Shown: in pieces, positions 6,703 through 18,618 of the stretch
Numbering within the stretch: the stretch's first letter is position 1
How the letters are laid out: every line of letters begins with the position of its first letter
Sequence record: OR204651.1
Strand: one strand, 5' to 3'
DNA from: Escherichia phage pO103
DNA: 39,837 nucleotides
The notes under the pieces: model-generated
Told to the model about the DNA's origin: nothing
The model's input: only the letters and a program-made list of their open reading frames with translations
Databases searched by the model: none
Position numbers and translations under genes: made by a program

Positions 6703-7785
6703 ATGGAAATCAACTTTAAGACTTCGCCACATAAAGCTGTATCATTCGTTGAGTCTGCTGTTAATAAAGCTCTCGACAAAGCTGGCTACCTGATTGCTGA
6801 CATTAAATATGATGGCGTTCGTGGTAACATTGTAGTTGACCAGTTCGGTGTGGCTGCGTGGCTGTCACGCGTCAGCAAGACCATCCCGGCACTTGAGCAC
6901 CTAAATAGTGAATCACTAAGCTACCGCTGGGTGCAGCTTCTTAGCGATGACCGCTGTATCTTCCCTGATGGCTTCATGCTTGATGGTGAACTGATGGTCA
7001 AAGGAGTAGACTTCAACACAGGGTCTGGCTTACTGAGGACCAAGTGGCTCAAGCAGAAGAACTTCATGTACACTGATTGTTCTGAGTGGGGCAAGGACTG
7101 TACGGGAAAACCTTTCGAGCTAGACGTTAAGCGACTCAAAGTTATCCTCTATGGTGTCATGCCGTTTGACTCTATGGTCTCCGGTGAGACCTACGAAGTG
7201 ATGAACCTACTGATGCGCGAGCATGTTAAGGCTATGCTTCCTGTTCTGCGCGAGCACTTCCCTGAAATCGAATGGGACATCTCTGAGAGCTACGAAGTGT
7301 ACGATATGGTAGAACTGAATGCCCTCTATGAGAAAGCCCGTGCCGATGGTCATGAAGGTCTGGTAGTCAAAGACCCGCTGGGATTCTATATGCGCGGTAA
7401 GAAGTCCGGCTACTGGAAGATGAAGCCTGAGTGTGAAGCTGATGGTGTAATCGTGGGACTCAATTGGGGGACTAAAGGTCTCGCTAATGAAGGCAAAGTT
7501 ATTGGCTTCGAGGTTCTCTTGGAGTCCGGTCGCGTAGTTAATGCCAACAACATTAGCCAAGAGTTGATGGACGAGTTCACCGAGAAGGTAAAGGAGAAGA
7601 CACTAAGTGACTGCGGGTTCTTCAGTCCATACGGAATCGGAGACAATGATGCCTGTACGCGTAACCCCTTCGAGGGCTGGCAGTGCCAAGTGGCCTACAT
7701 GGAGGAAACTCCTGATGGTTCTCTGCGTCACCCATCGTTCGTTATGTTCCGAGGAACTGAGGATAACCCAAAGGAGAAAATGTAA
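6703..7785 (+). CDS. 1.3: Gene 1.3 ATP-dependent DNA ligase
   Basis: 360 aa; adenylation motif KYDGVR; matches T7 ligase length (359 aa). Confidence 0.95.
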   Translation: MEINFKTSPHKAVSFVESAVNKALDKAGYLIADIKYDGVRGNIVVDQFGVAAWLSRVSKTIPALEHLNSESLSYRWVQLLSDDRCIFPDGFMLDGELMVKGVDFNTGSGLLRTKWLKQKNFMYTDCSEWGKDCTGKPFELDVKRLKVILYGVMPFDSMVSGETYEVMNLLMREHVKAMLPVLREHFPEIEWDISESYEVYDMVELNALYEKARADGHEGLVVKDPLGFYMRGKKSGYWKMKPECEADGVIVGLNWGTKGLANEGKVIGFEVLLESGRVVNANNISQELMDEFTEKVKEKTLSDCGFFSPYGIGDNDACTRNPFEGWQCQVAYMEETPDGSLRHPSFVMFRGTEDNPKEKM

Positions 7786-7967
7786 TGCTTATCTTTGACG
7801 AGAACGGTTGGAGAGTGTATCAACACCCACACCTGATGATATTCCACATATCAAAGTGGATGGAAGGAGATGACCGGAGAAGCTACGGGAGAACTTGGGA
7901 CTACTTTACTGTCCATGAGTGCCATAGTATTAAGGAAGTCAAAGAGTACCTACGAAACAATATGTAA
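7785..7967 (+). CDS. Hypothetical protein (60 aa), gene 1.4 position
   Basis: ORF overlapping ligase stop (ATGA-type coupling). Confidence 0.4.
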   Translation: MLIFDENGWRVYQHPHLMIFHISKWMEGDDRRSYGRTWDYFTVHECHSIKEVKEYLRNNM

Positions 7968-7975
7968 AGACAAAC

Positions 7976-8005
7976 GGTCAGTCCTTAAGGGGCTGGCCTT
8001 TTTGC
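7976..8005 (+). terminator. Early (host RNAP) rho-independent terminator TE-like: GGTCAG stem, CTGGCC, then TTTTT
   Basis: Hairpin followed by T-run just before the first class II promoter, as in T7. Confidence 0.55.
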
Positions 8006-8009
8006 GTTT

Positions 8010-8032
8010 CTATACGACTCACTATGGAGGAA
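8010..8032 (+). promoter_or_regulatory. Candidate phage promoter (phi1.5-like), variant: TATACGACTCACTAT-GGAGGA, one nt short before GG
   Basis: Core CGACTCACTAT present but -17 region and -1 deviate. Confidence 0.45.
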
Positions 8033-8039
8033 CAACCTC

Positions 8040-8120
8040 ATGCTATTTCTAATCGTCGCTATCATTGCTGCCACCTTTGCTCTCGTTATCATTGATGACA
8101 ACTGCTGGCCTGATTGCTAA
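8040..8120 (+). CDS. Small hydrophobic peptide, 26 aa (MLFLIVAIIAATFALVIIDDNCWPDC), gene 1.5 position
   Basis: GGAGG RBS 7 nt upstream; single predicted TM helix; below ORF-track cut-off. Confidence 0.35.
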   Translation: MLFLIVAIIAATFALVIIDDNCWPDC

Positions 8121-8147
8121 TATGACTCACATATGGAGGACACAACT

Positions 8148-8411
8148 ATGTTAAGACTTCACTTCAATAAATCTAATGGTATCTTTTCGGCTCGTGGTGC
8201 TGACCGCTCTACGGTTCTGGCCTCTGAGAAACACGCAGTCATCCCTAAAGTGCTTGGCTCGACCATTGAGTTAGCACCTCGTGTTCACGCTGTAATTACT
8301 ACTGGCTTATATAAAGAAGCGACCACTGGCTCCCGGCCTTTCATTCCGGTTCTCGTCACCCGTTTCCCTAAAGTCCGTCTGGTAATTGCGCGTATCAAGG
8401 AGGTGTTCTAA
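8148..8411 (+). CDS. Gene 1.6-like hypothetical protein (87 aa)
   Basis: GGAGGA RBS at 8135-8140; T7 gp1.6 is 88 aa at the same position. Confidence 0.55.
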   Translation: MLRLHFNKSNGIFSARGADRSTVLASEKHAVIPKVLGSTIELAPRVHAVITTGLYKEATTGSRPFIPVLVTRFPKVRLVIARIKEVF

Positions 8412-10948: not shown

Positions 10949-11400
10949 GTAAGGTACAATTCAAACCACGCGCTGTGACAGAAGCAATCTTTGTCCACTG
11001 TAGCGCAACCAAAGCGTCCATGAATGTTGGGCTGCGTGAAATCCGTCAGTGGCATAAAGAACAAGGCTGGCTCGATGTAGGCTACCACTTCATTATTCGC
11101 CGTGATGGGACAATCGAAGAAGGCCGTCCGGTCGATGTCGTTGGGTCTCACGTTAAGGACTGGAACAGTAAGTCAGTCGGTGTGTGCCTCGTAGGTGGTA
11201 TCGACGATAAAGGTAAGTTCGAAGCTAACTTTACGCCAGCACAGATGCACTCTCTTAAAGAGAAACTTGCAGACCTGAAGGACATGTATCCTGATGCAGA
11301 AATTAAAGCTCATCATGACGTGGCACCTAAAGCCTGTCCGTCCTTCAACTTGAGCCGCTGGCTGAAGACTGGAGAACTGGTTACAAGCGATTGGGGTTAA
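10945..11400 (+). CDS. 3.5: Gene 3.5 lysozyme (N-acetylmuramoyl-L-alanine amidase) / RNAP inhibitor
   Basis: 151 aa; AIFVHCSATK...REIRQWHKEQGWLDVGYHFII matches T7 lysozyme. Confidence 0.95.
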   Translation: MSKVQFKPRAVTEAIFVHCSATKASMNVGLREIRQWHKEQGWLDVGYHFIIRRDGTIEEGRPVDVVGSHVKDWNSKSVGVCLVGGIDDKGKFEANFTPAQMHSLKEKLADLKDMYPDAEIKAHHDVAPKACPSFNLSRWLKTGELVTSDWG

Positions 11401-11420
11401 TAGAACTCACTATGGGAGGA
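11398..11420 (+). promoter_or_regulatory. Candidate phage promoter phi3.8-like (TAATAGAACTCACTAT-GGGAGGA, one nt short), followed by GGGAGGACCGAAAGGTTTCTCCC stem-loop
   Basis: Core ACTCACTAT plus GGGAGG; immediately after lysozyme stop. Confidence 0.5.
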
Positions 11421-11470
11421 CCGAAAGGTTTCTCCCTTTGTTCGCTAAAATTGTATAAGGAGTAATCACT

Positions 11471-13679
<2,209 letters not shown>

Positions 13680-17620: not shown

Positions 17621-18531
17621 GCGCTCTTACACTGAAGGAGTTCTATGAGATTCGCCAAGGTAAATCCGACAAGGGTGTTCTCGTAATGGATGGTGACTGG
17701 CTGGTATTTCAGGCAATGGCTGCAAGCGAAGTCGAGACCGATTGGGGAGATGACACATGGACCTTAGAATGCGATCATGGGAAAGCGTGGAGCATTCTGG
17801 TAGACTCCATCAAGTCCTATGCCGGTCGCAAGAAGGCTTGGCGTGATGCGCCTATCGTATTGGCCTTCACTGACTCTGTGAACTGGCGTAAGGAACTGGT
17901 GGACCCTACCTATAAGGAGAACCGTAAGGCATCCCGTAAGCCTGTAGGCTACCGTGCGTTCATCGAGCGTGTTCAAGCCTTTGAGGACTGGACGTCTATC
18001 CTTGAGCCTCGCTTAGAGGGTGATGACGTAATGGGTATCATCGGGTCCGGTGCTAAACACTTTGGATTCAAGAAGGCTGTGCTGGTCTCCTGTGATAAGG
18101 ACTTTAAGACTATCCCTGATTGTGACTTCTTGTGGTGCACTACTGGTAACATCTTGACTCAAGACCAGACGACTGCCGACTACTGGCACATCTATCAGAC
18201 CATTAAGGGTGACTTGACAGATGGCTATGGTGGCATTCCGGGCTGGGGTGAGACTACCGCTGAGTGGCTGGAGAACCCATATGCATTTGAACAGGTTGAG
18301 AAAACTTTCAAGTCTGGTGCTCGTAAGGGACAGACAGTTCTCGAATGGAAAAAGGTTGACATGGGTGAGCGAACCCTATGGGAAGCCATTGTGACACTTG
18401 GCGCGAAAGCTGGGATGACCGAGCAGGAAATCATTAAGCAGGGCCAGATGGCTCGCATCCTACGTTTCGAAGAGTACAACTTTATCGACAAGGAGATTTA
18501 CCTATGGTCGCCGGAACAGTTGCGCTCGTGA
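17617..18531 (+). CDS. 6: Gene 6 5-prime to 3-prime exonuclease
   Basis: 304 aa from MSALTLKEFYEI; VMDGDWLVFQAM and GDDVMG motifs match T7 gp6; ATG overlaps 5.7 stop. Confidence 0.95.
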   Translation: MSALTLKEFYEIRQGKSDKGVLVMDGDWLVFQAMAASEVETDWGDDTWTLECDHGKAWSILVDSIKSYAGRKKAWRDAPIVLAFTDSVNWRKELVDPTYKENRKASRKPVGYRAFIERVQAFEDWTSILEPRLEGDDVMGIIGSGAKHFGFKKAVLVSCDKDFKTIPDCDFLWCTTGNILTQDQTTADYWHIYQTIKGDLTDGYGGIPGWGETTAEWLENPYAFEQVEKTFKSGARKGQTVLEWKKVDMGERTLWEAIVTLGAKAGMTEQEIIKQGQMARILRFEEYNFIDKEIYLWSPEQLRS

Positions 18532-18618
18532 TGTTCACAGCCATAGCCTTCTCTATGGTGTGGGCTGCATTTATAGCTAAGAGTGTGTAACTCTAGGCAT
18601 TCTTCTCGACAGTGAAAT

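Follow-up and report, generated by a model that had tools for sequence, protein, structure and literature searches.

Gene 1.5 and a conserved 28-aa gene before gene 4: two small predicted membrane-helix genes of a T7-like phage

Bacteria produce small inner-membrane proteins that act as regulators (AcrZ, MgrB and MgtS) or as type I toxins (Ibs, TisB and DinQ). These proteins are shorter than 50 aa and have a single helix, some of them are toxic when overexpressed, and the two groups offer two models for small membrane peptides encoded by phages.

Among T7-like phages a gene for such a peptide, gene 1.5, is annotated in T7, T3, BA14, Kvp1, 285P, Yepe2 and phiYeO3-12, and experiments on it have been published for T7 and T3. 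Ligase-deleted T7 and two T3 lines acquired knock-outs of gene 1.5 in parallel, and in T3 the loss of the gene by a nonsense mutation was selected (PMC2696425); in the view of the authors of that study the conserved function of gene 1.5 probably touches DNA metabolism. In a preprint, 53 T7 genes were cloned in pBAD33 and 34 of the 53 proteins, Gp1.5 among them, were toxic in minimal medium, so that toxicity of Gp1.5 is not specific (bioRxiv 10.64898/2026.01.27.700999). Stringent-like rpoB alleles suppressed the toxicity of four proteins, among them Gp1.5, and did so in a ppGpp0 background too, and a two-hybrid test of T7 Gp1.5 against RelA, SpoT and RpoZ gave no consistent interaction (bioRxiv 10.64898/2026.01.27.700999). 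These phenotypes, like the purifying selection described below, are indirect evidence that gp1.5 is made during infection; in T3 and T7 the protein would be expressed, biologically active and dispensable. All these experimental data concern gp1.5 proteins that are just 36–56% identical to the peptide described below. Inducible expression, which a sequence-only reading of the present DNA had proposed, is already reported for T7 Gp1.5 in that preprint. Our literature searches on ribosome profiling of T7 small proteins returned nothing relevant, and no proteomic data were found either.

The DNA analysed here, a stretch of 39.8 kb (the window), is that of a T7-like phage and carries a ligase gene, T7-type promoters, the gene 3.5 amidase and the gene 4 primase/helicase. 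A megablast search places it in the genus Berlinvirus (Autographiviridae/Autotranscriptaviridae, Studiervirinae); it has 90–93% identity across 25 kb to Shigella phage A7 and Escherichia phages P483, D226 and nasanit, and BA14, 285P and Kvp1 are further relatives. The sequence-only reading had singled out two ORFs, one of 26 aa at 8040–8120 with a GGAGG and one of 28 aa at 11471–11557 with an AAGGAG. Both are present in the window, the GGAGG 9 nt and the AAGGAG 8 nt before the respective ATG (Table 1). Both Shine-Dalgarno (SD) sequences are strong, as that reading had it, and well spaced; the GGAGG of the 26-aa ORF is not an independent site, though, as it is a part of promoter phi1.5.

Table 1. 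Features of the window around the two small genes, and the third small ORF that passed the scan
Feature	Position	Strand	Basis and remarks
Early transcription terminator TE	7976..8008	+	Terminator scan: 10-pair stem at 7976-7998 followed by TTTTTGCGTT
Promoter phi1.5 (CTATACGACTCACTATGGAGGAA)	8010..8032	+	Start of transcription at ~8027 (+/-1); fits the promoter consensus of the window
SD GGAGG of gene 1.5	8026..8030	+	Read from the sequence; equals positions -1 to +4 of phi1.5
Gene 1.5	8040..8120	+	26 aa, MLFLIVAIIAATFALVIIDDNCWPDC; ATG at 8040, TAA at 8118-8120
Promoter phi1.6 (TAATATGACTCACATATGGAGGA)	8118..8140	+	Begins with the TAA stop of gene 1.5
Gene 1.6 (87 aa)	8148..8411	+	Annotated in relatives; always follows gene 1.5
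Promoter upstream of gene 4 (TAATAGAACTCACTATGGGAGGA)	11398..11420	+	Promoter scan; overlaps the amidase stop codon
5'-terminal transcript stem-loop (GGAGGACCGAAAGGTTTCTCC)	11415..11435	+	In both the minimum-free-energy and the centroid folds; kept in relatives
SD AAGGAG of the 28-aa ORF	11457..11462	+	Read from the sequence; TAAGGAG conserved in relatives
Unnamed conserved gene, 28-aa single-helix microprotein	11471..11557	+	ATG at 11471, TAG at 11555-11557; phrog_25193
SD AGGAG of gene 4A	11556..11560	+	Overlaps the TAG of the 28-aa ORF; ETEP21B annotates a ribosome_binding_site here
Gene 4A, DNA primase/helicase	11568..13277	+	ORF list, annotation of relatives and start mapping; ATG at 11568
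Gene 6.3	18504..18590	+	Third ORF passing the scan; annotated in BA14

To see how unusual such ORFs are, we scanned every ATG-ORF of 20–45 aa and required an SD of at least 5 bases together with a 17-residue hydrophobic window. Three ORFs out of 168 passed on the plus strand and none out of 159 on the minus strand, while 200 first-order Markov simulations of the window gave a mean of 0.005 ORFs. With three ORFs observed, all on the coding strand, the observation is real and far from chance. The summed apparent free energy of the 17-residue stretch is −4.95 kcal/mol in the 26-aa peptide and −1.95 kcal/mol in the 28-aa peptide on a Hessa-type scale (Hessa et al. 2005).

The scan bears directly on the reading that the two ORFs are not genes but chance open frames in intergenic spacers, placed behind a promoter-derived GGAGG or AGGAG. 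Both ORFs are indeed very short, automatic annotation skips both in most relatives and the GGAGG of the first does belong to a promoter. Still, this reading is strongly disfavoured and we consider it extremely improbable, given the excess over expectation, the conservation of the 26-aa peptide across genera with variation at third codon positions, length differences that stay in frame (both described below) and the published genetic and toxicity phenotypes of gp1.5. Both ORFs are very probably real genes. The claim that they are genuine small genes for single-helix hydrophobic peptides is borne out by the comparative data, which reveal selection on both peptides. The term 'unannotated' was an overstatement in a broadly reasonable interpretation: most GenBank records of relatives do omit both genes, but several relatives annotate one or both of them, and each gene has its own PHROG family.

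Its position, its profile match and its architecture identify the 26-aa ORF as gene 1.5 of the T7 group. The order on the window, TE, phi1.5, gene 1.5, phi1.6 and gene 1.6, is also the layout in T7, T3, BA14 and Kvp1, where the terminator is annotated at the same position as well. The promoter consensus derived from the window itself is TAATACGACTCACTAT(T)GGGAG; phi1.5 differs from the annotated phi1.5 of BA14 by two mismatches (at −12 and −11) and has the same geometry as phi1.5 of T7 and T3. Since the GGAGG coincides with promoter positions −1 to +4, transcripts started at phi1.5 carry the SD at their extreme 5′ end, in a leader of 13 nt. The same fusion of promoter and SD is found in T7 (GGAGGTACACACCATG), in T3 and in the clade of Klebsiella phages, with leaders of 11–13 nt. 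Overlap of phi1.6 with the end of gene 1.5 is present in the BA14 annotation too. The annotated genes are 81 nt long at the identical position in BA14, 285P and Kvp1, 78 nt long in T3 and 90 nt long in T7.

The peptide matches profile phrog_10145 from end to end (E=4.3e-17, residues 1–26 against profile positions 1–26 of 26). A tblastn search located it in 147 phage records, most of which have no annotation of the gene; the hosts are Yersinia, Escherichia, Salmonella, Klebsiella, Serratia, Enterobacter, Erwinia and Pectobacterium. An ORF of phage P151 that is not annotated encodes a peptide with 100% identity to the window gp1.5. The translations can be aligned as MLFLI...DDNCWPDC (Berlinvirus), MWLILFAIVATLGLMVADDNIWPDC (T3) and MMYLMPLLIVIVGCLALHCSDDDMPDGHA (T7).

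For a broader sample we drew 70 loci from IMG/VR, anchored on gp1.6. A gp1.5-like ORF lies directly upstream of gene 1.6 in all 70 loci; six loci missed by a strict filter were resolved by manual inspection as one tail variant, one GTG start, two tail-end frame variants and two script misses. All 70 products combine a membrane helix with an acidic tail, even though identity to the window peptide outside the Berlinvirus type is just 8–56%; very divergent types include MSINLILIIVFILAAIVWSMNDEPPKGA, MDNILYLYLFLILLMVITYPDDNWPET and MNPLWLIVIVFVASWVFIWLDDNWPSGPTAGAHKE. The plan of the family, to which the window gp1.5 conforms, is a peptide of 25–35 aa with a helix that begins at residues 1–4 and is followed by [DN][DE][DNE], an optional residue and [W/M/P]-P. 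In the gp1.5 alignment M1 and P24 are invariant and D20 is at least 90% conserved.

Selection acts on this peptide. Among 11 distinct Berlinvirus-type sequences of gene 1.5 the numbers of variable columns at the first, second and third codon positions are 10, 6 and 16, and dN/dS, 0.27 for the whole gene, is 0.51 for the helix and 0.016 for the tail. For 27 distinct sequences of the Klebsiella-phage type dN/dS is 0.12, compared with 1.2 and 7.9 in the shifted frames. Gene 1.5 is therefore a protein-coding gene, with the tail as its most constrained part.

This difference between tail and helix matters for the question of what the peptides do. They could be real and yet non-specific: short, very hydrophobic helices that act on the inner membrane itself, disturbing or depolarising it as Ibs, TisB, DinQ or pinholins do, with no protein partner, and that in this way help to shut down host physiology. 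Several properties fit such bulk damage. The gp1.5 peptide is extremely hydrophobic, as the free energy over its 17 residues indicates, its helix accepts many conservative substitutions, as the dN/dS value for that part reflects, and T7 Gp1.5 is toxic when overexpressed; moreover, the gap between the amidase and primase genes harbours one to three unrelated small membrane-helix ORFs in different clades, which suggests that hydrophobicity itself is selected. Nonetheless, a near-invariant tail with the pattern D-D/E-x-x-W/P-P across genera is not required for bulk damage, and simple depolarisation does not account for a toxicity that is conditional (seen in minimal medium only) and that RNA polymerase alleles suppress. 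The genes also reside in the class II DNA-metabolism region rather than in the lysis cassette. We regard non-specific membrane damage as unlikely, and the far stronger constraint on the tail than on the helix favours a specific interaction instead.

The second ORF, at 11471–11557, is a member of PHROG 25193 and the first cistron past the gene 4 promoter. The profile is matched over its full length (phrog_25193, E=2.6e-22, residues 1–28 against profile positions 1–28 of 28). The gene is contained in 51 phage records, mostly without annotation; where annotated, it appears as 'unknown product' in BA14 (AS7_0018), as 'unknown' in 285P (LXB_018) and as a hypothetical protein in FE44 and BSP161. Our literature search found nothing on this gene, and the family has no gene name. 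A promoter is annotated at the equivalent position in BA14, in Kvp1 (as phi4A) and in ETEP21B. Between the promoter and the ORF there are a stem-loop, an A/T-rich spacer and a TAAGGAG, a layout similar to the leader of T7 gene 10. T3 annotates an RNase III site, R3.8, at the place equivalent to the stem-loop. This 5′-terminal stem-loop, outside the ORF, is the only real-looking RNA element that we saw. A search of Rfam at a permissive threshold returned no family at either ORF and one spurious lncRNA match elsewhere, and the predicted folds of the two regions do not exceed shuffled sequence in stability (z=−0.47 and +0.57).

Within Berlinvirus only 12 of the 87 columns of the 28-aa ORF vary, and dN/dS in frame, at 0.31, is barely below the 0.36 of the +1 frame; this measure is uninformative here because conservation at the nucleotide level is too high. 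In its place we used an allele count, the phase of indels and divergent lineages. The allele count in Berlinvirus is seven synonymous and six non-synonymous (P=0.045 in frame versus 0.14 and 0.97 in the other frames), and substitutions in the helix are all conservative except for one Cys-to-Gly. The divergent lineages are the stronger evidence. Counterparts are present in Yersinia pestis phages (MYNLKEHVFVILICVLIIGGACLRPFL, 84 nt) and in an Erwinia phage (MNKNDLEVIIPYALIFFVGFLLKLYGVY, 87 nt); in both, the middle of the ORF has strongly diverged while the start, the SD, the open frame and the hydrophobic core are kept. All length differences between lineages are multiples of three: −3 nt in the Y. 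pestis clade and +12 nt in PC127 and BP12A, where the extra 12 nt are an in-frame duplication and the SD, the position of the start and the hydrophobic core are the same. The invariant 3′ end of the ORF (CTGCGTCCGTTCCT) could reflect the ribosome-binding region of gene 4 rather than the peptide.

Throughout Berlinvirus the stop codon of the 28-aa ORF is located 10 nt before the ATG of gene 4A and inside the SD of gene 4A. In the Klebsiella-phage clade the small ORF and the primase start overlap as ATGA and the SD of the primase gene is weak or absent; judged from sequence, this is the classic signature of translational coupling. Dependence of the downstream gene looks real in the Klebsiella-phage clade only. 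In the window coupling is not required, as gene 4A itself comes with a good SD.

These arrangements raise the question of whether the peptides are incidental to a role of the two ORFs in cis. The 28-aa ORF would then be a leader that loads or unmasks the start of gene 4A, and gene 1.5 a short spacer whose translation keeps the mRNA occupied by ribosomes from two promoters up to gene 1.6. The stop codon inside the gene 4A SD and the ATGA overlaps of the Klebsiella phages, in front of a primase start without SD, are what such a role predicts; likewise, the SD of gene 1.6 in the same clade is formed by the final codons of gene 1.5 (AAAGGAGCA). The 3′ end of the 28-aa ORF is conserved at synonymous sites too, and in the minimum-free-energy fold the SD of gene 4A is paired with the final codons of this ORF. 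The fold is not significant, however, with the z=−0.47 given above, and the same holds for the other region. A pure coupling device would not need the hydrophobic helix of 17–20 residues that is kept in every lineage, and the pN/pS values of the analogues in Klebsiella phages, 0.12 for a 39-aa family and 0.30 for a 31-aa family versus 0.9–2.7 in control frames, would be unexpected for one. In the window both gene 4A and gene 1.6 have strong SDs of their own and gene 1.6 is also preceded by a promoter of its own; in T3-type phages the slot before gene 4 contains no ORF; and the selection for nonsense loss of gene 1.5 in T3 implies that the peptide matters (PMC2696425). A mainly cis-acting role seems to us quite improbable.

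Several assignments to known classes of small ORFs were considered and rejected. The 28-aa ORF is not a remnant of T7 gene 3.8, although both products start with MRK: one locus of our sample, L094, has both, an intact small membrane-helix ORF and, after it, the HNH gene, and they are therefore distinct genes. A holin or pinholin function was rejected since both ORFs are in the class II region behind class II promoters and not in a lysis cassette. The 28-aa ORF is near the amidase gene 3.5, and neither ORF has a dual start or a charged C-terminal domain. The holin of the T7 group is gene 17.5, as stated for a T7-like phage (PMC3080317). A lipoprotein or secreted peptide was rejected as well, for gp1.5 has no basic residue and the window peptide contains no [LVI][ASTVI][GAS]C; the lipobox-like IVGC of T7 gp1.5 is not conserved in the family. 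As to the context of type I toxins, no opposite-strand sigma-70 promoter-like site was seen within or right beside either ORF. Neither peptide is a holin, a lipoprotein or a documented type I toxin. Sequence searches of Pfam, NCBIfam and PDB produced no significant match, and the one Pfam entry listed was Vpu, a weak match to the Klebsiella-phage peptide (E=0.47, below the cut-off).

The explanation that we favour, and consider probable, is that both are genuine genes of the class II (DNA-metabolism) region whose products are single-pass inner-membrane microproteins acting on a partner. Gene 1.5, as the first gene past the early terminator, would be transcribed from phi1.5 and by read-through from upstream. 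Peptides as short as these would still be inside the ribosome at release, so their insertion into the inner membrane would be post-translational. In gp1.5 residues 1–18 would form the membrane helix, and the acidic tail DDNCWPDC, without a basic residue, would be the functional determinant. The whole peptide lacks basic residues and the net charge of the tail is −3; as the tail is purely acidic, it is most likely periplasmic (N-in/C-out). There the tail may bind a specific partner, either a protein shared by the Enterobacterales or one that the phage encodes. By this explanation gene 1.5 would be non-essential and would yet affect fitness.

The product of the 28-aa gene would likewise be a membrane microprotein, basic at its N-terminus, helical at about residues 8–24 and ending in LRPFL. 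The basic MRK start, together with a single Arg after the helix, suggests an N-in orientation. As the ORF terminates inside the gene 4A SD, its translation may also deliver ribosomes to the primase/helicase start. These details of partner binding and of coupling are put forward tentatively, as somewhat less likely than not.

A bolder version can be formulated, in which gp1.5 is a host-takeover microprotein whose invariant acidic Trp-Pro tail docks onto a membrane protein conserved in Enterobacterales, and the cistron before gene 4 is a conserved translational gate to the primase/helicase in T7-like genera. We think it rather doubtful. If true, the docking of gp1.5 would link envelope or energy physiology to phage DNA metabolism, and would explain the repeated loss of the gene when ligase is limiting, the relief by stringent-like RNA polymerase alleles and a tail more constrained than the helix.

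Given that both peptides are already catalogued, the finding of two small membrane-peptide genes is correct but already known, and nothing here overturns current understanding. Modest additions made by this work are the family-wide motif of the gp1.5 tail with its extreme constraint, and a conserved arrangement of the stop codon of a small membrane-helix cistron relative to the start of gene 4. The comparative data point to the acidic tail of gp1.5 as functional determinant, and to the coupling geometry before the primase gene. Two or three conserved genes per T7-like genome (gene 1.5, the ORF before gene 4 and gene 6.3) fall under common ORF-length cut-offs; most deposited relatives lack these small genes in their annotation, which should therefore be completed by synteny. 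They are among the last genes without an assigned function in the best-studied phage family.

In comparison with the bacterial small membrane proteins, the two phage peptides have no known sequence similarity to them and no recognised antisense RNA or toxin–antitoxin context, and their genes stand behind phage promoters. Other T7-like phages fill the slot before gene 4 differently. In T7 it holds gene 3.8 (HNH endonuclease), which is the first cistron past phi3.8 and overlaps the start of gene 4A by 26 nt; its product is an unrelated soluble protein of 121 aa of the homing-endonuclease type. In Klebsiella T7-like phages the slot between the amidase and primase genes is occupied by one to three small membrane-helix ORFs, for example MNKFKEHFADSWPLYVYASAFVIGALRVLLP and MSNLKDFDIIPLLAYGVLGLWGVTFLIAFFMSCVDGTAL (PHROG 13077). 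These have the same position as the 28-aa ORF and a similar N-terminus, M-x-K/N-L/F-K-E, and the 31-aa form MNKFKEHFADSWPLYVYASAFVIGALRVLLP has a G-A-L-R motif in common with it, in near-identical codons. They are under purifying selection. They are longer, and their end overlaps the primase start as ATGA, whereas the 28-aa ORF stops 10 nt upstream. Homology with the 28-aa ORF is plausible, the cross-hits between such short sequences reaching only E=0.1–0.2.

The 28-aa peptide is identical to that of 285P and 93% identical to that of BA14, with the same position between phi4A and gene 4A and the same overlap of stop codon and SD. The window gp1.5 has 85–92% identity to the proteins of BA14, Kvp1 and 285P, from which it differs by a few conservative substitutions in the helix, and is similar in size to the described gp1.5 proteins of T7 (NP_041965, 29 aa), T3 (NP_523306, 25 aa) and BA14, Kvp1 and 285P (26 aa), which with PHROG 10145 and 12128 represent the known family. 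T7 gp1.5 is 36% identical to the window peptide and has a longer tail (HCSDDDMPDGHA). The known gp1.5 proteins and the window peptide have in common a helix that starts from Met1, an acidic tail and a conserved Pro.

Across T7-like genera, genes for small membrane peptides seem to be gained and lost particularly often in the gap between the amidase and primase genes. In many Berlinviruses (BA14, 285P, A7, nasanit and PYPS50), the amidase stop codon and the gene 4 promoter are separated by an additional cassette of ∼97 nt, its product being a further membrane-helix peptide of 29–30 aa (MMIIHEMGLYDLIYRLAFMLAMVYILTRKD, phrog_25602); this cassette is absent from the equivalent junction of the window. 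The annotation of phage A7 wrongly labels the phrog_25602 peptide ‘carbohydrate ABC transporter permease’.

In some Klebsiella T7-like phages, the small membrane-helix ORF is separated from the primase gene by an inserted HNH endonuclease gene like gene 3.8 of T7 (MRKSYKQY...). At one such locus, L094, the HNH gene starts at the ATG of an ATGA overlap with the end of the small ORF, an arrangement that fits insertion of a homing endonuclease into a translationally coupled junction.

What looks like a small accessory-gene insertion lies between gene 1.3 (ligase) and the early terminator TE. This segment of roughly 180 nt, containing a 60-aa ORF annotated as hypothetical in phage nasanit, is present in a minority of Berlinviruses only, as seen from two-piece matches in the genome comparison, and is absent from BA14, Kvp1 and most other Berlinviruses compared.

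A third small membrane-helix ORF with a Shine-Dalgarno (SD) sequence is present in the window; it corresponds to gene 6.3 annotated in BA14. The ORF and the end of gene 6 overlap, and a phage promoter (18619) follows the ORF closely. Gene 6.3 also falls under the ORF cut-off that hid the other two peptides, and was not listed in the sequence-only reading.

Table. Coordinates of features in the window and in related-phage loci (L handles)
Feature	Coordinates	Strand	Remarks
Phage promoters 1–8	379, 6090, 6592, 8010, 8118, 9318, 11398, 13681	+	consensus match
Phage promoters 9–16	14526, 18619, 21549, 22536, 23924, 26983, 34862, 39271	+	consensus match
60-aa ORF, MLIFDENGWRVYQHPHLMIFHISKWMEGDDRRSYGRTWDYFTVHECHSIKEVKEYLRNNM	7785-7967	+	directly after ligase gene, overlapping ligase stop
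Conserved 5′-terminal stem-loop, GGAGGACCGAAAGGTTTCTCC	11415-11435	+	start of gene 4 promoter transcript
Gene 6.3 ORF, 28 aa, MVAGTVALVMFTAIAFSMVWAAFIAKSV	18504-18590	+	SD and membrane helix
∼97-nt cassette	L005 301-393; L011 442-531		window equivalent: 11398-11400 junction
HNH gene insertion	L094 about 2020-2480; also L052, L059, L089, L093

The window has ∼16 matches to phage-polymerase promoters (consensus TAATACGACTCACTAT(T/A)GGGAG), and all 16 listed are on the plus strand. The initiation region is off-consensus in phi1.5, phi1.6 and the gene 4 promoter, where G at −1 is followed by GAGG or GGAGG; in phi1.5 and phi1.6 the SD of the next gene downstream arises from this deviation.

The stem-loop with which the transcript from the gene 4 promoter begins has an equivalent in Erwinia phage pEa_SNUABM_57, GGGAGACCACACGGTTTCCC, which is nearly identical to the stem-loop of the T7 gene 10 leader. 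In T3, RNase III site R3.8 is annotated at the position equivalent to this stem-loop.
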